The notes: generated from the letters alone by a model not told the origin. Positions 1 to 8,985 are shown, numbered from the stretch's first letter. The stretch: DNA of 8,985 nt from a virus (IMGVR_UViG_2698536450_000022), one strand, 5' to 3'. Numbers and translations: made by a program.

Positions 1-981
1 TTATAACGTCACTCCGCCTTTTAGTGGATTCAGAGCGACGGCATTTTGCAGATAGTCAGGCGCAAGGTGCGCATAGGCCATCGTCTGCTGAATGCTCGCA
101 TGTCCCAGAATCTGTTGCAGTGCGATTATATTGCCCCCATTCATCATGAAATGGCTTGCGAATGTATGCCGCAGGATGTGGGTTGCCTGATTGGGTGGTA
201 TATCAGGTTTCACTCTGCGTAAAATCCCGCAAAATTTCTCATAATCAACTTTGAATAATTTGGCGCTGGCCTCCTCTTTAACTTTTTTCTCCAGTTCCTC
301 AGAAATCGGCACGGTTCGCTTTTTACCGTTTTTGGTTTTCAGGAAGGTAACCCTGCAATTTGTAATCTGTGCTGGTTTTAGCGTGGCAACTTCCGTCCAT
401 CTTCCTCCGGTGCTCAGACATAAAAGCGCGACAAGTAAGTCATCACCAGCCAAAACATTTAACAGTTTTTCGATTTCTGCTTTTTCCAGGAACGTCATTT
501 CAGGGTTGGCCTCCGCCAGTGGCGGCAGTCCGTGAATTGGGTGTTGCCCGGAAAATTCATCCAATTGAATTAATTTTGTGAACATGCCGGATAATCGGTA
601 CATGTCACGGTTTATCGTTGCGGCACTGATACCATCACGTAGTCGCATGGAACGATAATCCATCAAAGCCCTTTTGCTCATCCTGCTCACTGGTATATCA
701 CCTATGCCGCTGATGGTTTTGAGTAGATGATTAAACTCTTTTGTTCCATGCTCGTGGTTTTGCCCGTGATATTTCCACCAGATGTCCAGCAACTCACTCA
801 AAGTCCGGCGGTCTGCTCGCTGGCCTCCCCATTCTTTCTGACTGGCATTGGCGATTGTGTATCGCTCAAATGCTAGTGCTTCAGCTTTTCTTTCGAATTT
901 CCTGCGGATGCGTTTTCCGTCGCGACCGCGAGGTCTAATGTCCACTTCATAGCGACCATCATCGAGCTTCTTAATTGCCAT
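1..981 (-). CDS. int: P2-like prophage integrase (tyrosine site-specific recombinase). The ORF is open to 1011, but the preferred start is the internal ATG at 981 (MAIKKLDDGRYEV...), which has a GGAGGG Shine-Dalgarno about 7 nt upstream; the ATG at 1011 has none.
   Basis: Complete minus-strand ORF with stop TAA at 1-3. The C-terminus carries the tyrosine recombinase catalytic signature (HILRHTFASHF ... LGHASIQQTMAYAH, i.e. H-x-x-R ... Y). N-terminus MAIKKLDDGRYEVDIRP and the length match P2 Int as recalled from memory. Sits immediately downstream of the C repressor, as in P2. Confidence 0.9.
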   Translation of the reverse strand: MAIKKLDDGRYEVDIRPRGRDGKRIRRKFERKAEALAFERYTIANASQKEWGGQRADRRTLSELLDIWWKYHGQNHEHGTKEFNHLLKTISGIGDIPVSRMSKRALMDYRSMRLRDGISAATINRDMYRLSGMFTKLIQLDEFSGQHPIHGLPPLAEANPEMTFLEKAEIEKLLNVLAGDDLLVALLCLSTGGRWTEVATLKPAQITNCRVTFLKTKNGKKRTVPISEELEKKVKEEASAKLFKVDYEKFCGILRRVKPDIPPNQATHILRHTFASHFMMNGGNIIALQQILGHASIQQTMAYAHLAPDYLQNAVALNPLKGGVTL

Positions 982-1050
982 AAGAAAGCCCTCCGGCGCT
1001 GTATTCACCATCTTGGTAGCAAATGGTGAAAATGTAATCTTTATATAGAG

Positions 1051-1344
1051 TTAGCCAATCCTTTTCGCGGAGTGGTTGGACTCTGTTGACTCTGGCCCAA
1101 TGTGCGCGAGAGCCGGTGCGATTTGTCCTGCGTCCGGCGCGGTTTTATCTGTCATAAGCCATAGAGCATATTTTTGGAATGTGGGATGCATAGTGATTTT
1201 TAGCAAAGCTGTGCCACCGGGTTCAAAGTTTCCTCCTTCATATTTTTTAAGTGTGCTTAGCGGTAACTCTATGATTTCACAGAATTTTGATTGGCTTAGC
1301 CCTTCAGCCTCACGCAAGGCCTTAATCTTTTCGCTTAATTTCAT
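1051..1344 (-). CDS. C: Immunity repressor, P2 C-like (97 aa)
   Basis: 97-aa minus-strand ORF directly upstream of int and divergent from cox. Size is close to P2 C (99 aa) and the C-terminal segment ...YALWLMTDKTAPDAGQIAPALAHIGPE... resembles P2 C as recalled. The N-terminal half has an HTH-like pattern (LSQSKFCEIIELPLSTLKKYE). Confidence 0.8.
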   Translation of the reverse strand: MKLSEKIKALREAEGLSQSKFCEIIELPLSTLKKYEGGNFEPGGTALLKITMHPTFQKYALWLMTDKTAPDAGQIAPALAHIGPESTESNHSAKRIG

Positions 1345-1465
1345 TTGACATGGTGCCTATATAGGGACTAAATTCCCTCAAAACTGGAACCTATATAGGT
1401 TCCATTGATTTGAGAATAAACCAGCATCTAAACGGTTTTGAGTGGTTTAGAAAGGGCTGGATCCT
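1345..1465. promoter_or_regulatory. Lysogeny/lytic switch region (divergent Pc/Pe-type promoters) with operator-like palindromes
   Basis: 121-bp intergenic region between divergent C and cox. TTGACA at 1345-1350 with a candidate -10 TAAATT at 1369-1374 (18-bp spacer) reads rightward toward cox. The 10-bp palindrome CCTATATAGG occurs twice (1356-1365 and 1390-1399); the second copy is embedded in a perfect 18-bp palindrome GGAACCTATATAGGTTCC (1386-1403). A further AGGGA-N6-TCCCT repeat lies at 1363-1378. Confidence 0.55.
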
Positions 1466-1753
1466 ATGAGGGTACCATATATGGACGCTGAAAATTATGT
1501 GATTCAGTATCCGCTTGATGCGGTTCATGTGGATAAATTTGCTGATTTATTAGGGAAGCCAAAGACAGCCGTCAGTGAAATGGTGAAGGCAAATAAATTA
1601 CCAATTATTGAATTGCGTGATCCTTGCAAACCGAAGGCTCGTGCCGGTGAAAAATGGGTTTTCATTCCTGAGTTTAATCGCGCTGTACGTGAGGCGTTTT
1701 ATAACCGACCGGTTGAACAGCGTGATGCATGGCTTTTGTGGATGGGGTTGTGA
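1466..1753 (+). CDS. cox: Cox-like excisionase / transcriptional repressor of the lysogenic promoter (95 aa)
   Basis: First gene of the rightward operon, divergent from C, as in P2. Size is close to P2 Cox (91 aa). The pattern ...KLPIIEL.DP....AGEKWVFIPEFN......RD.WLLWMGL matches what I recall of P2 Cox. Confidence 0.75.
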   Translation: MRVPYMDAENYVIQYPLDAVHVDKFADLLGKPKTAVSEMVKANKLPIIELRDPCKPKARAGEKWVFIPEFNRAVREAFYNRPVEQRDAWLLWMGL

Positions 1754-1755
1754 TT

Positions 1756-1926
1756 ATGAATGAGCCGCGTTGTATTGCTCAGTTATTGCGTAACGAAAGC
1801 CCCAGGGCGATTGACTTCACCATCACCCACGGTAAGGGGCGTAAGGGAATCATTATCCGCACCAAAAAACAGAGTCCGTTAAAAAAGGCTCTGACCTTTC
1901 TGAAAAGCCGGAGGGTATGGAAATGA
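1756..1926 (+). CDS. Small hypothetical protein at the P2 orf78 position (56 aa from the ATG at 1756; the ORF is open from 1729)
   Basis: ORF between cox and B. The ATG at 1756 lies 2 nt after the cox stop (1751-1753). The protein is basic (MNEPRCIAQLLRNESPRAIDFTITHGKGRKGIIIRTKKQ...). Its stop overlaps the B start (ATGA at 1923-1926). Confidence 0.45.
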   Translation: MNEPRCIAQLLRNESPRAIDFTITHGKGRKGIIIRTKKQSPLKKALTFLKSRRVWK

Positions 1927-2423
1927 CAGTGATGACGCTCAATCTCGTTGAAAAACAGCCAGCAGCTATGCGCCGGATAATTGGCAAGCATCTTGCCGTC
2001 CCTCGCTGGCAGGATACATGTGATTATTATAATCAGATGATGGAGCGCGAACGGCTAACGGTTTGCTTTCATGCACAGTTAAAACAGCGTCACGCAACGA
2101 TGCGTTTTGAAGAAATGAACGACGTCGAACGTGAACGACTGGTTTGTGCAATTGATGAATTGCGTGGCGCATTCTCAAAACGCCGTCAGGTCGGCGCAAG
2201 TGAGTATGCATATATTAGTTTTTTAACAGTCAGTCAGCGTCGTACTTTATTTATGCATGCGGGATTGACAGAAAAAGAATTCAATCAGCCGTACTGGCGA
2301 ATTAATGAAGAATCATGTTACTGGCGTGATGCTTTATTCCGTGCATTACGTGAATTATTCAGTCTGTTTGAGTATGCACCGACAATTCTGACGTCGGTAA
2401 AACCAGAGCAATATCTGCATTAA
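1923..2423 (+). CDS. B: Replication protein B-like (P2 B is a DnaB helicase loader); 166 aa from the ATG at 1923, ORF open from the ATG at 1917
   Basis: Position after cox/orf78 matches P2 gene order. GGAGGG at 1910-1915 gives a 7-nt spacer to the ATG at 1923 but only 1 nt to the ATG at 1917. A length of 166 aa from 1923 equals P2 B as recalled. Confidence 0.75.
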   Translation: MTVMTLNLVEKQPAAMRRIIGKHLAVPRWQDTCDYYNQMMERERLTVCFHAQLKQRHATMRFEEMNDVERERLVCAIDELRGAFSKRRQVGASEYAYISFLTVSQRRTLFMHAGLTEKEFNQPYWRINEESCYWRDALFRALRELFSLFEYAPTILTSVKPEQYLH

Positions 2424-2444
2424 ATAATTAACCAGAGTTTTTAA

Positions 2445-2472
2445 CGCACTTAATCGTGCGGGGCTTCTTTTT
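2445..2472 (+). terminator. Weak hairpin plus T-tract downstream of B (candidate attenuator or terminator)
   Basis: CGCAC (2445-2449) / GTGCG (2456-2460) form a 5-bp stem with a 6-nt loop, followed by GGGCTTCTTTTT (2461-2472). The stem is short, so this is tentative. Confidence 0.3.
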
Positions 2473-2486
2473 GCCTGGAGAAAGTC

Positions 2487-2711
2487 ATGCATACAGTTTC
2501 TGAAAATCAGTGCGGTAAATACGCATTACTGCTGCAACAGGCCAGAACCGAAGCACAGGCCGACGCTGCGACGCGCTTTTCTTCTCATCTTGACGCCATG
2601 ATTCGCCACATCACAAAGGCGGAGTTATCCCGCGTGGAGATAGTTGAGCTGCTCAGTCAGGAGTCGGAAAAATTTCACAATATCGGATTGTCTCGCGGGG
2701 AGGTGCTTTGA
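2487..2711 (+). CDS. Small hypothetical protein (74 aa), P2 orf80 position
   Basis: ORF with a GGAGAAAG Shine-Dalgarno 5-6 nt upstream of the ATG at 2487. Its stop TGA (2709-2711) overlaps the next start (TGATG). Confidence 0.6.
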
Positions 2712-3013
2712 TGTCCTGTTCTCGTTCGGTTGTATTACTGAATAACGCCTTAAAAATCGCCGTTATGAAAAATGGTGATTTGTCTCTTATTCAACTTGGT
2801 ATTGATAAAGAGAAGCGCGAAATAACTGAATCTGTTATCGCGATTTATCAGAGTGAATTAAACCTCCTGTCTGATGTGGTCAATTTACTTGTTAAACGCG
2901 CTGTATTCCACAAGCAAATTTCCTCAGTGGATGAACTGACAAAATTAACGACAGAACTCGCCAGTTATTGCGCTGATGAATTTAAGAAGCTGAACGACAA
3001 AAGGAGCTGGTAA
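2711..3013 (+). CDS. Small hypothetical protein (100 aa), P2 orf81 position
   Basis: The ATG at 2711 overlaps the upstream stop. The track's start at 2708 is a TTG one codon earlier. The stop TAA (3011-3013) overlaps the next ATG (TAATG). Confidence 0.6.
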   Translation: MSCSRSVVLLNNALKIAVMKNGDLSLIQLGIDKEKREITESVIAIYQSELNLLSDVVNLLVKRAVFHKQISSVDELTKLTTELASYCADEFKKLNDKRSW

Positions 3014-3237
3014 TGCCGGACAACGTGGATTTTATTCAGGAACAACAGGCTGAATTACTGGAGCGCCAGATTAACGCGGCAAGGGTAAAACATTGCGGTG
3101 TTTCTGCGCTGGTTTGCGAAGAGTGTGACGCGCCAATACCTGCTGCCCGTCGTGCGGCTTATCCGTCAGCCACGCGTTGTGTTTCCTGTCAGTCAGTCTT
3201 TGAAGCAAAAAACAAACATTACCGGAGAACGGCATGA
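3013..3237 (+). CDS. TraR/DksA-family C4 zinc-finger protein (74 aa), P2 orf82 position
   Basis: Two CxxC pairs with appropriate spacing (LVCEEC ... RCVSCQ) follow an N-terminal acidic/helical segment, typical of TraR/DksA-type small zinc fingers. Translationally coupled on both sides. Confidence 0.7.
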   Translation: MPDNVDFIQEQQAELLERQINAARVKHCGVSALVCEECDAPIPAARRAAYPSATRCVSCQSVFEAKNKHYRRTA

Positions 3238-3509
3238 GTATTCGTATTGAAATTGGCGAACGTTATGTCGTTACCAGTGACAGCTTTCAGTTTATTCTCC
3301 ACGAGAAAAAGAGAGCGGAAAGCGGTAAAAACGCCGGTCAGGAATGGCTGGCGGTGGTTGGTTATTACCCGAAATTAGGCCAGCTCGTTTCCGGCCTGAT
3401 GCATCACGATATTCTGACCGGAAGCGCAAAATCTTTTGCTGATTTAAACGCGCAGGTTGAGCAACTCAGCAAGCGTTGTTCAGAGGCTTTTGGCTCATAT
3501 GGCCGTTAA
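3234..3509 (+). CDS. Small hypothetical protein (91 aa), P2 orf83 position
   Basis: ATGA overlap with the upstream gene at 3234-3237. The 3' end overlaps the A start by 11 nt. No recognisable catalytic motif. Confidence 0.6.
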   Translation: MSIRIEIGERYVVTSDSFQFILHEKKRAESGKNAGQEWLAVVGYYPKLGQLVSGLMHHDILTGSAKSFADLNAQVEQLSKRCSEAFGSYGR

Positions 3510-5772
3510 AGCCTCCGGGCGTTTTGTCCCTCCGTCAGCATTTACCGCAGGCACCGGTAAGGCGTTTACCGGTGCTTATGCATGGAACGCGCCACGCGAG
3601 GCTGTCGGGCGCGAAAGACCTCTTACACGTGACGAGATGCGTCAGGTGCAAGGTGTTTTATCCACGATTAACCGCCTGCCTTATTTTTTGCGCTCGCTGT
3701 TTACTTCACGCTATGACTACATCCGGCGCAATAAAAGCCCGGTGCACGGGTTTTATTTCCTCACATCTACTTTTCAGCGTCGTTTATGGCCGCGCATTGA
3801 GCGTGTGAATCAGCGCCATGAAATGAACACCGACGCGTCGTTGCTGTTTCTGGCAGAGCGTGACCACTATGCGCGCCTGCCGGGAATGAATGACAAGGAG
3901 CTGAAAAAGTTTGCCGCCCGTATCTCATCGCAGCTTTTCATGATGTATGAGGAACTCTGCGATGCATGGGTTGATGCGCATGGTGAAAAAGAATCGCTGT
4001 TTACGGATGAGGCGCAGGCTCACCTGTATGGTCATGTTGCTGGCGCTGCACGTGCTTTCAATATTTCCCCGCTCTACTGGAAAAAATACCGTAAAGGACA
4101 GATGACCACGAGGCAGGCATATTCTGCCATTGCCCGCCTGTTTAACGATGAGTGGTGGACTCATCAGCTTAAAGGCCAGCGTATGCGCTGGCATGAGGCG
4201 TTACTGATAGCTGTCGGGGAGGTCAATAAAGACCGTTCTCCTTATGCCAGTAAACACGCCATTCGTGATGTGCGTGCGCGCCGCCAGGCAAATCTGGAAT
4301 TTCTTAAATCGTGTGACCTTGAAAACAGGGAAACCGGCGAGCGCATCGACCTTATCAGTAAGGTGATGGGCAGTATTTCTAATCCTGAAATTCGCCGGAT
4401 GGAGCTGATGAACACCATTGCCGGTATTGAGCGTTACGCCGCCGCAGAGGGTGATGTGGGGATGTTTATCACGCTGACCGCGCCGTCAAAGTATCACCCG
4501 ACACGTCAGGTCGGAAAAGGCGAAAGTAAAACCGTTCAGCTTAATCACGGCTGGAACGATGAGGCATTTAATCCAAAGGATGCGCAGCGTTATCTCTGCC
4601 GTATCTGGAGCCTGATGCGCACGGCATTCAAGGATAATGATTTACAGGTCTACGGTTTGCGAGTCGTCGAGCCACACCACGACGGAACGCCGCACTGGCA
4701 TATGATGCTTTTTTGTCATCCACGCCAGCGTAACCAGATTATCGAAATCATGCGTCGCTATGCGCTCAAAGAGGATGGCGACGAAAGAGGAGCCGCGCGA
4801 AACCGTTTTCAGGCAAAACACCTTAACCGGGGCGGTGCTGCGGGATATATCGCGAAATACATTTCAAAAAACATCGACGGCTATGCACTGGATGGTCAGC
4901 TCGATAACGACACCGGCAGGCCGCTGAAAGACACTGCAGCGGCTGTTACCGCATGGGCGTCAACGTGGCGCATTCCGCAATTTAAAACGGTTGGCCTGCC
5001 GACAATGGGGGCTTACCGTGAACTACGCAAATTGCCTCGCGGCGTCAGCATTGCTGATGAGTTTGACGAGCGCGTCGAGGCTGCACGCGCCGCCGCAGAC
5101 AGTGGTGATTTTGCGCTGTATATCAGCGCGCAGGGCGGGGCAAATGTCCCGCGCGATTGTCAGACTGTCAGGGTCGCCCGTAGTCTGTCGGATGACGTTA
5201 ACGAGTACGAGGAAGAAGTCGAGAGAGTGGTCGGCATTTACGCGCCGCATCTCGGCGCGCGTCATATTCATATCACCAGAACGACGGACTGGCGCATTGT
5301 GCCGAAAGTTCCGGTCGTTGAGCCTTTGACTTTAAAAAGCGGCATCGCCGCGCCTCGGAGTCCTGTCAATAACTGTGGAAAACTCACCGGTGGTGATACT
5401 TCGTTACCGGCTCCCACACCTTCTGAGCACGCCGCAGCAGTGCTTAATCTGGTTGATGACGGTGTTATCGAATGGAGTGACCCGGAGGTCGTGAGGGCGC
5501 TCAGAGGTGCATTAAAACACGGTCGGAGAACGCCAAGTCGTCAGCAAAGAAACGGAAGCCCGTTAAAACCACATGAAATTGCACCATCGGCCAGACTGAC
5601 CCGGTCGGAAAGAATGCAAATTACCCGTATCCGCGTTGACCTTGCTCAGAACGGTATCAGGCCGCAGCGATGGGAGCTTGAGGCGCTGGCGCGTGGCGCG
5701 ACCGTAAATTATGATGGGAAAACGTTTTCATATCCGATTTCTGATGGTTGGGCGGGATTTGAAACAAACTAA
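3499..5772 (+). CDS. A: Rolling-circle replication initiator (P2 gpA-type HUH replication endonuclease); 757 aa from the ATG at 3499, ORF open from the TTG at 3457
   Basis: HUH-type metal-binding motif ...HHDGTPHWHMMLF (HH at 4675-4680, PHWH at 4690-4701). Paired active-site tyrosines in GYIAKYISKNIDGY (Y codons at 4846-4848 and 4858-4860). Size and position after B and the small ORFs match P2 gene A (761 aa as recalled). The ATG at 3499 gives MAVKASGRFVP... Confidence 0.9.
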   Translation: MAVKASGRFVPPSAFTAGTGKAFTGAYAWNAPREAVGRERPLTRDEMRQVQGVLSTINRLPYFLRSLFTSRYDYIRRNKSPVHGFYFLTSTFQRRLWPRIERVNQRHEMNTDASLLFLAERDHYARLPGMNDKELKKFAARISSQLFMMYEELCDAWVDAHGEKESLFTDEAQAHLYGHVAGAARAFNISPLYWKKYRKGQMTTRQAYSAIARLFNDEWWTHQLKGQRMRWHEALLIAVGEVNKDRSPYASKHAIRDVRARRQANLEFLKSCDLENRETGERIDLISKVMGSISNPEIRRMELMNTIAGIERYAAAEGDVGMFITLTAPSKYHPTRQVGKGESKTVQLNHGWNDEAFNPKDAQRYLCRIWSLMRTAFKDNDLQVYGLRVVEPHHDGTPHWHMMLFCHPRQRNQIIEIMRRYALKEDGDERGAARNRFQAKHLNRGGAAGYIAKYISKNIDGYALDGQLDNDTGRPLKDTAAAVTAWASTWRIPQFKTVGLPTMGAYRELRKLPRGVSIADEFDERVEAARAAADSGDFALYISAQGGANVPRDCQTVRVARSLSDDVNEYEEEVERVVGIYAPHLGARHIHITRTTDWRIVPKVPVVEPLTLKSGIAAPRSPVNNCGKLTGGDTSLPAPTPSEHAAAVLNLVDDGVIEWSDPEVVRALRGALKHGRRTPSRQQRNGSPLKPHEIAPSARLTRSERMQITRIRVDLAQNGIRPQRWELEALARGATVNYDGKTFSYPISDGWAGFETN

Positions 5773-5781
5773 CAATAATGA

Positions 5782-5883
5782 TTGACATGCTTGATTTTGT
5801 ATTCACAAATCAAGCATCAAGTAAACATCGATGATGAGAAAGAACAATGCTACAATCCCCACAGCATTAGAAGGAGGTTTATC
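5782..5883 (+). promoter_or_regulatory. Promoter/operator region of the methyltransferase gene
   Basis: TTGACA at 5782-5787. Perfect 9-bp inverted repeat GCTTGATTT (5789-5797) / AAATCAAGC (5807-5815) with a 9-bp spacer. Extended -10 TGcTACAAT at 5848-5856. Shine-Dalgarno AAGGAGG at 5871-5877, 6 nt before the TTG at 5884. Confidence 0.55.
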
Positions 5884-6933
5884 TTGATTAAGGTTGTTGA
5901 TTTATTCTGTGGCGCGGGTGGCTTGACTCACGGTCTTCAGAAGTCGGGGCTTAATGTAGTTGCAGGTTATGATATAGATGCAGCCTGTCGATTTGCCTAT
6001 GAGACAAATAATAAATCACTCTTTGTCCAGAAAAGTGTTACAGACATTGAGGACGGCGAATTAGTTAAATATTTCGAAGGAGCGAAGGTTCGAGTTTTGG
6101 CTGGTTGTGCCCCATGCCAACCTTTTTCAAGCTATACCAATAGTGCTAAATTAGGGGTAGTACGTTCAAAAGATAAAAGATGGTCTTTGCTTTATAGCTT
6201 TGCTAAGCAAATTAAATTTGCAAAGCCAGATATTATTACAATGGAAAACGTTCCCCGAGTGGTGAATCATAAGGTTTTTAAGGACTTCATTAAGTCTCTT
6301 AAAAATGATGGCTATTTTGTTTGGTATGGGGTGGTGTTTTGTCCAGACTATGGAATGGCACAAAGTCGTTCAAGATTAGTGTTATTGGCATCAAAATATG
6401 GAGAAATAGAAATAATTCCACCAACTCATGAGAAGAATGATTATAAAACGGTGCGAGATATAATCGGTAATCTTCCTGAAATTAGTGCCGGTGCTGTTCA
6501 CGCTGGAGATAAACTACATCGCTCTGCATCATTATCTGATATTAATATAAAAAGAATAATGGCATCAAAACCTGGTGGAACATGGCGTGATTGGCCAGAA
6601 GAGCTAAGAGCAAAATGTCATACAAAAGAAAGTGGTTCTACATATACTGCTGTATATGGGAGAATGTGTTGGGATAAACTTGGACCGACAATTACAACTC
6701 AATGTATTGGATATGGGAATGGACGCTTTGGGCACCCTGTCCAAAATAGAGCATTAAGTTTAAGAGAGGCTGCGCTATTACAGTCATTCCCAGAAAAGTA
6801 TGAGTTTTGGCCTGATGATGTAAAAATTGAAATGAGAACAGTTGCGCGTTTAATAGGTAATGCTGTTCCTGTTAGGCTTGGTGAGGTCGTAGGTGAAACT
6901 ATTTTAAAACATTTGTCAGAAATGAATATTTAA
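5884..6933 (+). CDS. DNA (cytosine-5)-methyltransferase, Dcm/C5-MTase family; about 349 aa from the TTG start at 5884 (ORF open from the ATG at 5782, but that extension lacks an RBS and looks non-coding)
   Basis: Canonical C5-MTase motifs in order: motif I DLFCGAGG (5899-5922), catalytic motif IV GCAPCQPFSSY (PCQ at 6112-6120), motif VI ENV (6244-6252), motif VIII QSRSRLVLL, and C-terminal motifs IX/X ...RLIGNAVPVRLGEVVGE. A variable region between VIII and IX is consistent with a target-recognition domain. Confidence 0.9.
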   Translation: MIKVVDLFCGAGGLTHGLQKSGLNVVAGYDIDAACRFAYETNNKSLFVQKSVTDIEDGELVKYFEGAKVRVLAGCAPCQPFSSYTNSAKLGVVRSKDKRWSLLYSFAKQIKFAKPDIITMENVPRVVNHKVFKDFIKSLKNDGYFVWYGVVFCPDYGMAQSRSRLVLLASKYGEIEIIPPTHEKNDYKTVRDIIGNLPEISAGAVHAGDKLHRSASLSDINIKRIMASKPGGTWRDWPEELRAKCHTKESGSTYTAVYGRMCWDKLGPTITTQCIGYGNGRFGHPVQNRALSLREAALLQSFPEKYEFWPDDVKIEMRTVARLIGNAVPVRLGEVVGETILKHLSEMNI

Positions 6934-6945
6934 AACTTATGTCAT

Positions 6946-6969
6946 CCCCCCTGTCAAAAAACAGGGGGG
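6946..6969. terminator. GC-rich hairpin between the convergent methyltransferase and nuclease genes (candidate bidirectional terminator)
   Basis: CCCCCCTGT (6946-6954) pairs with ACAGGGGGG (6961-6969) around a 6-nt loop CAAAAA. It lies 13 nt after the MTase stop and 7 nt before the minus-strand stop. No strong U-tract on either side, so intrinsic termination is uncertain. Confidence 0.4.
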
Positions 6970-6975
6970 GTATAA

Positions 6976-8985
6976 TTAGATTCCCTCAACTATTTTCATA
7001 ATTCTAGCTGCATCATTCTTTTTGTCTTGATATTCAGCATAGGCTTGTTTTGATTGCACGATTAGGTCATTATATGTCAATATTTTTCCATTGATAGAAA
7101 GTAATTGCATATTTATAAAGTGTTGGTTCTCTTGTAAATATCCAGAGCCAACCAGGAATATTACTTCTATATGCGGTATATTTCCACCTGGGCAATTTTT
7201 AGGGTTATTGGAGAACCATTGTGTCGTTGCCTGTACATATTTATTACCTTGTGCGACTAGGTTCATTATATCTGGGTGCACTTTAGGTCGTTTCATCTCA
7301 ATAATTACATGCTTGCCAGAAACGGTTTTGAAAGCGATATCAATACGAGCACCGCTAGCAGCATCAGGGTTTATCTGTTTTAGTTCCTTGGTCAATGTTT
7401 GCTCCATAACAGATGTGCCTGTGACTCTTTCCCATGAAGGATCCAATAACCATAAATGATCATATAAATACATTTGTACAGCTCTTTCAAGCTGATTTTC
7501 ATCAGTTATTTTTTGGAATTTTTCAATTACTTTAAGGCGTTGCGAAGTAATTTCATAAAACATGCTTGCTTCAATGTCATTGACAGATGCAAATACATCT
7601 TTAAAATTTTCTGATTGAAGGTTGCTTATTTTATCTAATGCATCAAGGTTGTCTTGAATTCTAAGTCTTTCAAAGGCTAATACCGTATTTTTTAATACGG
7701 TTTTTCTTGCTGCTTTTTGTTCTTCCTCATTACCAGAAAAACGGAATGTGTTTACTCGTCCAATTAACTTTTCGGCACTTTCTCTCTCATGTTTTTTGAG
7801 AGAATTCAGCCATTCACTTACTATTGGAGTATTGCTTTTAACTTCATTTACTCCTTTTTCGCGTCTCCATTTATCCCAATCTTTATCGATTAGTTGTAGC
7901 GTTCTTTCCAGAAAACCTTTAAGTACAGGGTATCTTGGATCATTCTGTTGTAGTTTTTGACGAGAAGATGTTGCCATATCAGGCTTTTCGTTATCATCTA
8001 GAAAATCGGCGACTATTTCACCGACCAGATAATTGGTGAATACTTTAGCACTTCCAAATTCTAATAATATGTCCTCCTCAAAAACACGTCCGTGAGAGAT
8101 TACAGTAATGCTGTTGTTAGATATTTCAGGGTCTTTCTTTAACTGTGATGGCTTAACTACACTGCCAATGTACCCACTAACTTTTACATCTTTTCCTTCA
8201 AAGGTAATAGTATTTGGTAATATGTTTTTTTGTGTGATGTTTGTGCAGGATTTTATCCTTTCAGGGTCGGATTCGCCAAATTCCCAAATGAACTCGAGAT
8301 CTGAAAGGAAATCTCTATCTGCCGGTGTAATATCGGTCCCATTAATTTTAACTGTAAAGTTATGGTTGGGGCCAATAATGCTAAATCGACGAGCTATTCG
8401 CTTTCTGAGGTAAGTTTGAGTCCTATCAATGGCTTTTTTTAGTTCAAATAATTTAATTGTAGTGCCGTAAGCAAGATTTTCGGGTATTTCAAGGGAGTCA
8501 GCAATATAGTTTTTTGATTCTTTGATACTTTGCTGTAAATCTTTGACATCTACCTCAAAGGCCTGAGGCTGTTCCCCCTTTTTGTACGAATAAACTTGGA
8601 TTTTATTGGCAAGTGAAAACATGGCAAGCTTACCAATACCTTTTCTGCCCATAACTTGACGTTTTAGATGATCGCTTTTGGCTCTTCCATGTTCCCTGCG
8701 AGCATAACCGACTTTTAGGAACTTATTAATAATGTCATCTTTAGACATGCCATGACCATCATCTTTAATGATGACCTCTCCTTTCTCAACATCAAGTGTA
8801 ATTTCTACATTTTGAGCATCTGCATCCCATGCATTTGATATAATCTCAGTTAGTACCGCGGGAGTATTGGAATAGAGACTCATCCCTAGGGAAGGTGCGA
8901 ATAAGCAGGTCATTTCTTCCCAAGCTGACTCGCTGATTAAAATTTCGCGGATCTGGGCCGATTTTTTTCCCGTAAACACATCGAA
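6976..8985 (-). CDS. GHKL-family ATPase (MORC/MutL/Hsp90-like Bergerat fold) fused to a C-terminal PD-(D/E)xK nuclease domain; putative ATP-dependent restriction/defence nuclease. 5' end is incomplete: the frame is open to the window edge.
   Basis: Minus-strand ORF with stop at 6976-6978. GHKL motifs: N-box EIISNAWDA (8821-8847), G1 box DDGHGM (8746-8763), G2 box GRKGIGKLA (8623-8649). C-terminal RIDIAF ... IIEMK gives D547 / E561 / K563 of a PD-(D/E)xK core (7291-7341). The track's start at 8977-8979 is GTG, and the two codons upstream to 8985 (F, D) are in frame with no stop, so the true start is probably beyond the window. Confidence 0.85.
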   Translation of the reverse strand, partial: FDVFTGKKSAQIREILISESAWEEMTCLFAPSLGMSLYSNTPAVLTEIISNAWDADAQNVEITLDVEKGEVIIKDDGHGMSKDDIINKFLKVGYARREHGRAKSDHLKRQVMGRKGIGKLAMFSLANKIQVYSYKKGEQPQAFEVDVKDLQQSIKESKNYIADSLEIPENLAYGTTIKLFELKKAIDRTQTYLRKRIARRFSIIGPNHNFTVKINGTDITPADRDFLSDLEFIWEFGESDPERIKSCTNITQKNILPNTITFEGKDVKVSGYIGSVVKPSQLKKDPEISNNSITVISHGRVFEEDILLEFGSAKVFTNYLVGEIVADFLDDNEKPDMATSSRQKLQQNDPRYPVLKGFLERTLQLIDKDWDKWRREKGVNEVKSNTPIVSEWLNSLKKHERESAEKLIGRVNTFRFSGNEEEQKAARKTVLKNTVLAFERLRIQDNLDALDKISNLQSENFKDVFASVNDIEASMFYEITSQRLKVIEKFQKITDENQLERAVQMYLYDHLWLLDPSWERVTGTSVMEQTLTKELKQINPDAASGARIDIAFKTVSGKHVIIEMKRPKVHPDIMNLVAQGNKYVQATTQWFSNNPKNCPGGNIPHIEVIFLVGSGYLQENQHFINMQLLSINGKILTYNDLIVQSKQAYAEYQDKKNDAARIMKIVEGI

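Follow-up and report, generated by a model that had tools for sequence, protein, structure and literature searches.

An AT-rich restriction-modification cargo at the gpA-gpQ hotspot of a P2-like prophage, with its restriction gene interrupted by ISKpn26

The window analysed here is a stretch of viral DNA of 8,985 nucleotides (IMGVR_UViG_2698536450_000022) that ends in an AT-rich block. Positions 5773-8889 of this block very probably represent a restriction-modification (R-M) cargo in a hotspot of a P2-like (Peduovirus) phage, a cargo that is swapped among phages, has long been low in GC, and has had its restriction gene broken by ISKpn26. The locus is the published gpA-gpQ (cos-proximal) hotspot of P2-like prophages, and the cargo is already known. 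The hotspot was described by Rousset et al. 2022 (PMC9122126), citing Odegrip et al. 2006, and Table S5A of that paper lists the pair WP_000598783 and WP_001279022; GC content has 0 occurrences in its main text. Since the hotspot is published and the pair is catalogued, this instance of a defence hotspot needs no further attention as a discovery, and the present analysis is mainly clean-up. The features of the locus are as follows.

3499-5772, plus strand: replication gene A (gpA, 757 aa), the left flank of the hotspot; Pfam PF05840 (Phage_GPA), E 2.8e-124; GC 0.535
5704-5772, plus strand: transition zone within the 3' end of gene A; change point at 5704, homology stops at 5722 and 5759/5760
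5787-5817, plus strand: 11-bp perfect inverted repeat (ATGCTTGATTT / AAATCAAGCAT, 9-nt spacer) just past the gene A stop codon
5828-5856, plus strand: putative promoter of M; -35-like TCGATG (5828-5833), 17-nt spacer, extended -10 TGcTACAAT (5848-5856)
5873-5877, plus strand: putative ribosome-binding site of M, GGAGG
5884-6933, plus strand: gene M, cytosine-5 DNA methyltransferase (349 aa, TTG start), intact; PF00145, E 9.2e-56, profile positions 1-323 of 324
6944-6971, no strand: GC-rich hairpin, an inverted repeat (CCCCCCTG...CAGGGGGG), between the convergent genes M and R
6976-8889, minus strand: native part of gene R, a BbrUII/HgiDII-family (paraMORC3) restriction enzyme gene; codons 16-652 and the stop codon
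6976-8979, minus strand: chimeric 667-aa open reading frame with a GTG start at 8979; its first 30 codons are IS-derived and run in frame into R codon 16
8886-8889, no strand: IS target CTAG (codon 16 and the first base of codon 17 of R), read from the sequence and compared with the intact allele
8890-8985, no strand: terminal 96 nt of ISKpn26 (IS5 family), beginning with the inverted repeat GGAAGGTGCGAATAAG

The backbone genes int, C, cox, B and A were recognised by Pfam, the first four upstream of A, and gene A is also called as a gene in the source contig. The backbone of the window is 94-99% identical to Peduovirus genomes, and gene A shows the same 94-99% identity in the backbone-sharing P2-like phages. 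When megablast end-points were compared among the 107 phage records matching the window, homology to the backbone-sharing phages ended at 5722-5760 and then gave way to divergence, and the same cargo was found only in PhiR44_1. By alignment, the cargo-specific 3' end of gene A is common only to the prophage of CFSAN061771. The 3' end of gene A is present in 1682 of 5426 complete E. coli genomes, and the junction between A and M in 30; the intact M and R pair occurs in 30 of the 5426 as well, the same number as the junction. Sister phages carry five unrelated cargos at this position (GC 0.38-0.415), several with matches to defence models. The right flank was read from the intact prophage, in which homology to other phages restarts about 208 nt past the R start, 35-54 nt before cos, and the GC content rises to 0.61; intact copies thus have the order R, about 208 nt, cos-proximal homology and then portal gene Q. 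The cargo lies directly 3' of a P2-like gene A, and among related phages the flanks of the locus are conserved and its content varies. The proposal of the initial annotation that a swappable cargo sits in a conserved P2-like backbone is borne out by these homology stops and by the 1682 versus 30 genomes. P2-like phages would swap such modules by recombining in the conserved flanks: on one side the 3' end of gene A, on the other the DNA immediately to the left of cos.

The composition of the window changes sharply at this boundary. The GC content was 0.488 for positions 1-5772 versus 0.373 for 5773-8985 (two-proportion z about 10.5, computed from these segment values), and sliding windows fell from 0.55-0.59 (4800-5700) to 0.32-0.42 (5700-8850). 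By maximum likelihood, a single change point is best placed at 5704 and gains 57.8 nats of log-likelihood relative to a model without a step; it lies 68 nt left of 5773, within the final codons of gene A. Gene by gene, the GC content is 0.384 for M and 0.367 for R, versus the 0.535 of gene A, and the contrast is strongest at third codon positions (GC3 0.257 for M and 0.298 for R versus 0.541 for A). The codon index based on a reference table of E. coli genome usage is 0.55-0.56 for the cargo, 0.67 for gene A and 0.74-0.78 for late genes. The cargo has a GC content of 0.37 over 3.1 kb versus 0.525 in the adjacent chromosomal genes of an E. coli with the same prophage, so that its AT content at the kilobase scale is far above the host average. 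The abrupt shift and the AT-rich codons of both genes, as initially annotated, are thereby confirmed, and no homologous P2-like phage was found to carry the two genes at a backbone-like GC content; their composition stays AT-rich.

Other parts of the initial annotation held only in part. The left segment had been called balanced to GC-rich, but it is not so throughout: bases 1-3310 have a GC content of 0.453. The early backbone is heterogeneous (0.38-0.49 in sliding windows, with windows as low as 0.383 at 2701-3000), and the codon indices of int and C are no better than those of the cargo. Long A/T runs had been noted in the cargo, and mixed A/T (W) runs are indeed 1.5-5 times denser there than in the backbone, but they show no excess over shuffled cargo of matched composition (z about 0); for pure A or T homopolymers of at least 5 nt there is a modest enrichment (z 2.8), and TpA steps are under-represented (z -4.8). 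Finally, the whole of 5773-8985 had been taken as cargo; this holds for 5773-8889, whereas 8890-8985 is the end of an insertion sequence.

Homologous cassettes were compared across hosts. Cassettes of 50-82% identity were found in P2-like prophages of seven genera besides that of E. coli. In 8 of 8 contexts examined, which were chosen among matches with names and long contigs rather than at random and which cover eight gammaproteobacterial genera, the cassette lay in a P2-like prophage and always below the GC content of the backbone, and in every context R was paired with a C5 methyltransferase. Since all of these contexts are P2-like prophages, the immediate source of the cassette was most likely another P2-like phage. 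The closest relatives outside E. coli (R 77-82% identical) reside in P2-like prophages of high-GC Pantoea and Serratia, where R is equally AT-rich (0.35-0.37 versus 0.55-0.56 for the backbone). Among the E. coli, Pantoea and Serratia copies, fourfold-degenerate sites are saturated and yet GC3 stays at 0.26-0.29 (about 0.27); in low-GC Proteus, the cassette lies 6-12 points under its own backbone. A low GC content thus seems to be a lasting feature of the phage-borne cassette, and of hotspot cargo generally, and identifies no donor. As a lineage trait, a GC content of 0.36-0.38 with GC3 of 0.26-0.29 would mark no specific recent donor, and the comparison across hosts warns against taking low GC as a donor signature of phage-borne defence genes.

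A stronger reading of the same constancy, which we regard as possible but rather doubtful, is that AT-richness is actively maintained, either by H-NS-mediated control of a potentially toxic restriction activity or by a mutational regime specific to the hotspot, and that composition is a functional trait. Although synonymous sites have turned over completely, GC3 has remained near 0.27 in three high-GC hosts, and the five unrelated hotspot cargos all fall at 0.38-0.415, which speaks for such maintenance. Further in its favour, the abstract of a 2026 preprint states that, in E. coli, H-NS binds AT-rich immunity loci and silences them, and H-NS binds the Pc/Pe promoters of phage HQ103, whose backbone is near-identical; for this backbone, direct H-NS data were found for these promoters only and none for the cargo. 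Silencing of the cargo by H-NS is thus a plausible candidate, judged from composition and the general literature. However, the published high-affinity H-NS motif is not clearly enriched (1.9 versus 1.2 per kb when up to 2 mismatches are allowed) and has no match with up to 1 mismatch, and the W runs and depleted TpA steps of the cargo likewise argue against maintenance. Moreover, GC3 shifts from host to host (0.165 in Proteus, 0.37 in Vibrio), as would be expected under passive mutation pressure. A wider form of this idea, to which we give slightly less credence, is that the HgiDII-type GHKL-nuclease R-M clade is a long-term passenger largely restricted to Peduoviridae, with actively maintained AT-richness and with R recurrently knocked out to leave methylase-only prophages; silencing of a toxic restriction enzyme by H-NS in the lysogen is one possible reason for the maintenance. 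Repeated import from an AT-rich reservoir may also lie behind the persistent AT-richness.

The view that the cassette was recently acquired from an organism of lower genomic GC, its AT-richness being an unameliorated relic of that donor, is unlikely. It would account for the gap between the cargo and its surroundings (0.53 in the flanks, 0.525 in adjacent host DNA), and homologues of the cassette are also known in low-GC Proteus, Providencia and Pasteurellaceae. In addition, M and R are more conserved (63-82%) than gpA, gpQ and gpP (30-72%), which indicates that the cassette has moved between phage lineages. Yet the closest R proteins (82% and 77-81%) are those of high-GC Pantoea and Serratia, at the same low GC, and the copies in low-GC hosts are the more distant ones (68% and 50%). 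The cassette is below its backbone not only in Proteus but also in Aeromonas (0.37 versus 0.58-0.62), the saturated fourfold-degenerate sites show an unchanged GC3, every context is a P2-like prophage, and no donor with near-identical DNA was found. The lower-GC donor of the initial annotation was thus not supported as stated, the nearest relatives being in high-GC Pantoea and Serratia and the Proteus copy lying below its own backbone. Standing low GC in a cassette passed among P2-like phages remains the reading that we prefer.

The cassette itself has the two-gene arrangement of a classical type II R-M system. M matches the PADLOC models MTase_II and DrmMII as well as TIGR00675, and its DNA equals that of the WP_000598783 gene of the intact prophage. 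Between 5773 and 8890, the sole difference between the window and that prophage is an extra G at about 6970; since this G sits in the intergenic hairpin between M and R, the M gene is unchanged, and the window holds, next to the restriction gene, an intact C5 methyltransferase with no coding difference from that of the intact prophage. The hairpin folds at -20.9 and -21.0 kcal/mol, one value per strand, and is probably a bidirectional terminator; being GC-rich, it explains a local spike in GC content. Upstream of M, the putative promoter is the only conserved block in an alignment of 8 homologous cassettes, whose upstream regions are otherwise about 35% identical; a generic promoter scan missed it. 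The inverted repeat at 5787-5817 (fold -13 kcal/mol, z -2.7) is absent from the homologous cassettes outside E. coli in the upstream alignment.

R is convergent with M. Fold searches assigned it a GHKL ATPase domain, a middle domain like that of Hsp90/MutL and, at the C terminus, a PD-(D/E)xK nuclease, a restriction-endonuclease fold with an acidic/ExK motif. R matches PADLOC REase_II (4.6e-90), and the intact allele, to which the window is equal from codon 16 on, matches the NCBIfam equivalog NF050001 over residues 4-651 with 751.4 bits (cutoff 550). The pair is labelled 'BbrUII/HgiDII family restriction enzyme | DNA cytosine methyltransferase' in RefSeq and 'ParaMORC3 | Dcm' in PhiR44_1. The methyltransferase would protect resident DNA and the convergent GHKL-nuclease partner would restrict. 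The enzymes that give the family its name cut GTCGAC, and by analogy R may recognise this sequence; the window holds 0 such sites versus about 1.7 expected from its composition, a difference that carries no information. In a different interpretation, the GHKL-nuclease protein is an ATP-driven paraMORC-type effector with another trigger, such as methylation state or DNA structure, and the Dcm-like methylase serves as a self-marker. This appears improbable: two enzymes whose recognition site is known gave the NCBIfam equivalog its name, R.HgiDII is counted among the orthodox type IIP enzymes, and in every context R is strictly paired with a C5 methyltransferase, as in classical R-M systems.

In the window, R lacks codons 1-15 and its native promoter. 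The IS end is identical at 95 of 95 positions to thousands of E. coli copies on chromosomes and plasmids, and the transposase adjacent to the same IS end at locus L003 is annotated 'IS5-like element ISKpn26 family transposase'. The target is CTAG in the window and CTAA in L003; the target preference of the IS5-family element ISKpn26 is of the YTAR type. The initial annotation had missed both the IS at the right end of the region and the interruption of the restriction gene. The residues D9, N11, L13, N14 and H15 of R, which are invariant in 65 homologues, are lost, together with V12, which is nearly invariant in these homologues and invariant in a set of 13 sequences. The N-terminal GHKL module is incomplete, its codons 1-15 being swapped for IS-derived sequence, and the motifs that remain intact are E30/N34/D37, D58xGxG62, G96-G101 and G157-T158. 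Insertion of ISKpn26 at CTAG between R codons 15 and 16 has cost R its promoter, its start codon and six invariant N-terminal residues, and has probably left the prophage with a methyltransferase and without restriction. Since the insertion removes invariant N-terminal residues and parts R from its start codon and upstream region, the window does not hold an intact expressible restriction gene and this copy is probably a methylase-only remnant; on sequence grounds, the prophage most likely keeps the methyltransferase only and no longer restricts. Translation in frame through the IS end meets a stop directly upstream of the GTG at 8979. Because the ISKpn26 transposase would be co-directional with R and this GTG is in frame, the chimeric open reading frame may see some expression as an N-terminally altered protein. 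R is broken in another prophage too, by a +1 frameshift. Annotation pipelines will label the 667-aa product an 'ATP-binding protein', although it is really an IS-truncated chimera. A lysogen that probably methylates without restricting bears on predicted phage susceptibility and on the methylation of released P2-like virions.

The source contig stops no more than 1 nt from the end of the window, 96 nt into ISKpn26, and this draft-contig end and the heterogeneous early backbone (0.38-0.49) might suggest an assembly artefact or chimera, or ordinary intragenomic heterogeneity without horizontal transfer, but this explanation has almost no chance of being right and is effectively refuted because the A-M junction and cassette recur at 99.9-100% identity in 30 complete genomes and one isolated phage, the GC difference is greatest at third codon positions, and unrelated genes replace the cargo in sister phages.

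Among known systems, the HgiDII and BbrUII systems (NF050001) share with the intact allele a full-length match at equivalog level, an N-terminal GHKL domain and a C5 methyltransferase partner; their hosts (Herpetosiphon, Bifidobacterium) are unrelated. R.HgiDII was described as a GHKL-domain orthodox type IIP enzyme (Orlowski & Bujnicki 2008, PMC2441816), with a C-terminal domain that was unassigned in 2008, whereas here it models as a PD-(D/E)xK nuclease. The paraMORC3 family was described as having GHKL, S5-type middle and restriction-endonuclease-fold nuclease domains; it is common in proteobacteria and associated with DNA methylases (Iyer, Abhiman & Aravind 2008, PMC2292703). R shares this order and the conserved E-D-ExK motif, and the annotators of PhiR44_1 used the name; the link to P2-like prophages seen here is absent from that paper. 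The EcoO109I type II system (Kita et al. 1999, as cited in PMC9122126), in the hotspot of a P4-like satellite, is likewise an R-M cassette adjoining cos in a P2/P4-family element of E. coli, but it has a restriction enzyme of an unrelated family and a controller (HTH) gene, and its carrier is the satellite, not the helper phage. Yersinia phage P37 carries in the same hotspot a C5 methyltransferase and a 670-aa GHKL 'REase_II' protein (GC 0.397); these are only 39% (M) and 26% (R) identical to those of the window and are co-directional, with an ASCH-domain gene, and form a separate lineage of the same kind.

Nothing essential differs from the P2 gpA-gpQ hotspot (old/tin, 'TO'), which has the same position directly after gene A, ends left of cos and Q in intact copies, and has conserved flanks with many alternative, often anti-phage, cargos; the right flank of the window is an IS end and a contig end. 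The nearest counterparts are PhiR44_1 (PV340563) and the cpxP prophage of E. coli CFSAN061771 (NZ_CP042896), in which the backbone is 97.8-98.2% and the cassette 99.9-100% identical to the window and the A-M junction is shared. In both, an intact 652-aa restriction gene is followed by cos and the portal gene, whereas ISKpn26 separates codons 15 and 16 in the window.

The initial annotation had proposed that a balanced to GC-rich phage backbone gives way near position 5773 to an AT-rich cargo, and the composition of the window bears out this step. In 300-nt windows, GC was 0.51-0.59 over 3300-5700 versus 0.32-0.42 from 5700 to the end of the window, and a single change point fitted best at 5704, raising the log-likelihood by 57.8 nats. 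The features on the two sides of the step are as follows.

1-1011, minus strand: integrase (Pfam)
1051-1344, minus strand: repressor C (Pfam)
P2-type early region, no coordinates given: Cox, B and orf80-83 (Pfam)
3499-5772: replication endonuclease A (Pfam)
5884-6933, plus strand: cytosine-5 DNA methyltransferase (M), TTG start behind GGAGG, PF00145 over the full profile
6944-6971, both strands: GC-rich hairpin between M and the restriction gene (R), fold of -21 kcal/mol on either strand

By segment, GC was 0.488 for 1-5772, 0.535 for gene A and 0.373 for 5773-8985; within the cargo, the methyltransferase gene had 0.384 and the minus-strand ORF 0.367. The contrast was largest at third codon positions, where GC3 was 0.541 in gene A versus 0.257 and 0.298 in the methyltransferase gene and the minus-strand gene, confirming that both cargo genes use AT-rich codons. 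On a codon-usage index relative to E. coli genome usage, the cargo scored 0.55-0.56, gene A 0.67 and late phage genes 0.74-0.78. The description of 1-5772 as balanced to GC-rich did not hold uniformly, since this left part was uneven, with a GC of only 0.453 over 1-3310. The backbone early region is itself compositionally atypical, falling to 0.383 at 2701-3000, and integrase and repressor C (within 1-1344) had codon indices of 0.59 and 0.53 and rare-codon fractions of about 0.10, as poor as the cargo. The long A/T runs that had been described proved to be at chance expectation for a sequence of 37% GC: runs of at least 6, 8 and 10 A/T bases matched the shuffled sequences (z -0.3 to +0.6), and an excess beyond composition was therefore rejected. 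Homopolymers of at least 5 nt were modestly enriched in the cargo relative to shuffles (z 2.8).

The view of a cargo cassette set in a conserved backbone was supported. The region 1-5772 is a P2-type early region by Pfam, and P2-like phages, among them HQ103, L-413C, Wphi and P2_AC1, share its backbone at 94-99% identity. The match to these phages ends at 5722 or 5759/5760, within the final codons of gene A, and unrelated genes follow: PD-Lambda-5_A-like genes in HQ103, L-413C and Wphi, a TIR system known from the literature in P2_AC1, and a distant methylase and GHKL-REase pair in Yersinia phage P37 (L008 13750-16795). These alternative cargos have a GC of 0.38-0.415 beside a gene A of 0.53-0.54. 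The last ~17 codons of gene A (5704-5772) vary with the cargo carried by each phage, one version being common to the window and the intact copy CFSAN061771 and another to five other phages, which places the hotspot's left edge of recombination within the coding part of gene A. The change point at 5704 likewise falls in this variable end. In the intact prophage, homology to other phages returns ~208 nt past the start of R, with 35-54 nt left to the cos end, and there, near cos, GC climbs to 0.61. The 3' end of gene A was found in 1682 of 5426 complete E. coli genomes and the A-M junction in 30, the latter equal to the number of genomes with the cassette.

The AT-rich part consists of two convergent genes encoding the methyltransferase and a GHKL-ATPase protein, the latter recovered by the 'type II restriction enzyme' model of PADLOC (4.6e-90). 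The intact R protein (652 aa) scored 751 bits against a cutoff of 550 for the NCBIfam equivalog 'BbrUII/HgiDII family restriction enzyme', the family to which RefSeq assigns it; the annotators of PhiR44_1, another intact copy, named it paraMORC3. A literature search for PhiR44_1 found nothing relevant. Published work places R.HgiDII among the type IIP enzymes and gives it a GHKL domain at the N-terminus (PMC2441816), and describes paraMORC3 as a combination of GHKL, S5 and a C-terminal restriction-endonuclease-fold domain (PMC2292703). The GHKL motifs and the D498/D532/E546-x-K548 set were invariant in 65 homologues, and in the AlphaFold model of R (pLDDT 81) approximately 400 residues aligned with the N-terminal and middle domains of the Hsp90 family. 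Avoidance of GTCGAC, the site cut by the named family members, was not significant, the window having no such site in 8985 nt versus ~1.7 expected. Compared with the intact prophage L001, the window carries an extra base in the G-run of the hairpin between the two genes (6961-6971), and this intergenic length is the sole difference between them across 5773-8890.

The upstream regions of M were compared in an alignment (A3) of eight homologous cassettes. A promoter-like block at 5828-5856 (TCGAnG, 17 nt, TGnTAnAnT) is kept in all eight, and the DNA around it otherwise shows ~35% identity. Within the -35-like hexamer, the C at position 2 is conserved in 7/8, and in the window it sits within an ATCGAT palindrome. 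The block may be a promoter only, or also a regulatory or methylation-sensitive site. A generic sigma-70 and terminator scan of the cargo did not exceed shuffles in the number of sites and failed to pick up the conserved block. Directly 3' of the gene A stop, a perfect 11-bp inverted repeat (5787-5817; fold -13 kcal/mol, z -2.7) was confined to the cassette version of E. coli. Lacking a T-run, it does not qualify as a canonical terminator, and its reading as a conserved operator was rejected because it is absent from the seven other cassettes.

Homologues of R (50-82% identity), each with a methylase, lay inside P2-like prophages in every context examined (records L010, L011/L012, L013/L014, L015/L016, L017, L018 and L019, covering Pantoea, Serratia, Proteus, Vibrio, Gallibacterium-type, Aeromonas and Shewanella). 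The cassettes of Pantoea, Serratia and Proteus (Enterobacterales) occupy the same A-Q position; those of Vibrio, Aeromonas and Shewanella lie between the CI repressor and the integrase, and that of the Gallibacterium-type contig lies downstream of a CI-type repressor, adjoining tail genes. The cassette was more AT-rich than its own backbone in all seven contexts.

GC content of R, M and backbone in seven prophage contexts
Pantoea: R 0.37; M 0.39; backbone 0.56
Serratia: R 0.35; M 0.39; backbone 0.55
Aeromonas: R 0.37; M 0.43; backbone 0.58
Shewanella: R 0.38; M 0.42; backbone 0.47
Vibrio: R 0.39; M 0.43; backbone 0.46
Gallibacterium-type: R 0.34; M 0.37; backbone 0.43
Proteus: R 0.29; M 0.35; backbone 0.41

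Thus none of these P2-like prophages carried the same two genes with backbone-like composition, a result that leaves the reading of an AT-rich cassette unrefuted yet alters its interpretation. Between prophages, R and M were 63-82% identical versus 30-59% for gpA, 60-66% for gpQ and 60-72% for gpP, and this better conservation indicates that the cassette moved between P2-like lineages. Fourfold-degenerate sites of the E. coli, Pantoea and Serratia copies were saturated (0.25-0.36 identical versus 0.31-0.33 expected), and GC3 nevertheless stays at 0.26-0.29 across them. Given the saturated sites, the steady GC3 and the AT-richness in all contexts, low GC is an old, persistent trait of the phage-borne cassette. 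The inference of a lower-GC donor did not hold, since the Pantoea and Serratia copies are equally AT-rich. A donor search found no near-identical copy outside E. coli-type P2 prophages, the best named match there being 82% identical in protein (Pantoea). The data neither point to a particular low-GC donor nor require one, and the cassette most likely came directly from another P2-like phage. Selection, or recurrent import out of an AT-rich pool, may maintain its persistent low GC.

On composition, the cargo is a candidate H-NS target, as had been suggested, and silencing is plausible. The H-NS high-affinity motif (TCGATAAATT) had no hits in the cargo at up to one mismatch; at up to two mismatches the densities were 1.9 versus 1.2 per kb, which is not a clear enrichment. 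According to a 2026 preprint ('H-NS silences antiviral immunity...'), H-NS binds and silences AT-rich immunity loci in E. coli. In HQ103, whose backbone is 98.9% identical to the window, H-NS binds Pc and Pe promoter fragments by EMSA and controls the lytic switch (PMC10321612); Pc and Pe lie in the backbone, not in the cargo. Their counterpart in the window, the C-cox intergenic region (~1345-1465), has a GC of ~0.40.

The AT-rich segment had been taken as cargo throughout, which is correct up to an insertion sequence junction but not for the last 96 bases. Intact copies align with the window up to 8890 only; the bases beyond match thousands of sites in E. coli chromosomes and plasmids and agree at 100% identity with the end of an element that carries a transposase annotated as 'IS5-like element ISKpn26 family'. 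The window reads CTAG (8886-8889) and then GGAAGGTGCGAATAAG, and in the intact allele the same CTAG is R codon 16 plus one base, which places the IS between R codons 15 and 16. Consequently, the 667-aa ORF listed mechanically at 6976-8979 is an IS-R chimera that takes its first 30 codons from the end of the IS. The R residues lost include D9, N11, L13, N14 and H15, invariant in 65 homologues, and the nearly invariant V12; by alignment they correspond to the first helix in the Hsp90-type ATPase fold. The native promoter region of R is also missing. From these sequence features we infer that restriction activity is lost and the methyltransferase retained, and read-through from the co-directional transposase gene could express the chimeric ORF. 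Assemblies typically break at IS copies, as at the contig end here: the window and its source draft contig (GCA_001285885.1, CYDG01000047.1) both end 96 nt into the IS. The R::IS junction was found in none of the 5426 complete E. coli genomes searched; the source is a draft assembly. A second, independent R knock-out with an intact methylase was seen in a metagenomic P2-like prophage (L020 4001-5960, ENA ERZ28615316), where insertion of one A behind nt 1420 (codon 474) divides R into ORFs of 477, 36 and 143 aa; the 477-aa product belongs to a 90% cluster of 29 sequences.

The cargo locus is the gpA-gpQ hotspot described by Rousset et al. 2022 and, as they acknowledge, suggested earlier by Odegrip et al. 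2006, and the finding is already known in substance. Useful additions to this known feature are the IS-disrupted restriction gene with its chimeric ORF, the model-based fold assignment of the C-terminal nuclease domain of R, and an R-M clade that travels with P2-like phages and is AT-rich in every host examined. The pair of phage P37 represents a second R-M lineage of the paraMORC type in this hotspot: its C5 methylase is 39% identical to M of the window and its 670-aa GHKL 'REase_II' protein 26% identical to R, and its two genes are co-directional, with an ASCH-domain gene ahead of them, whereas M and R of the window are convergent.
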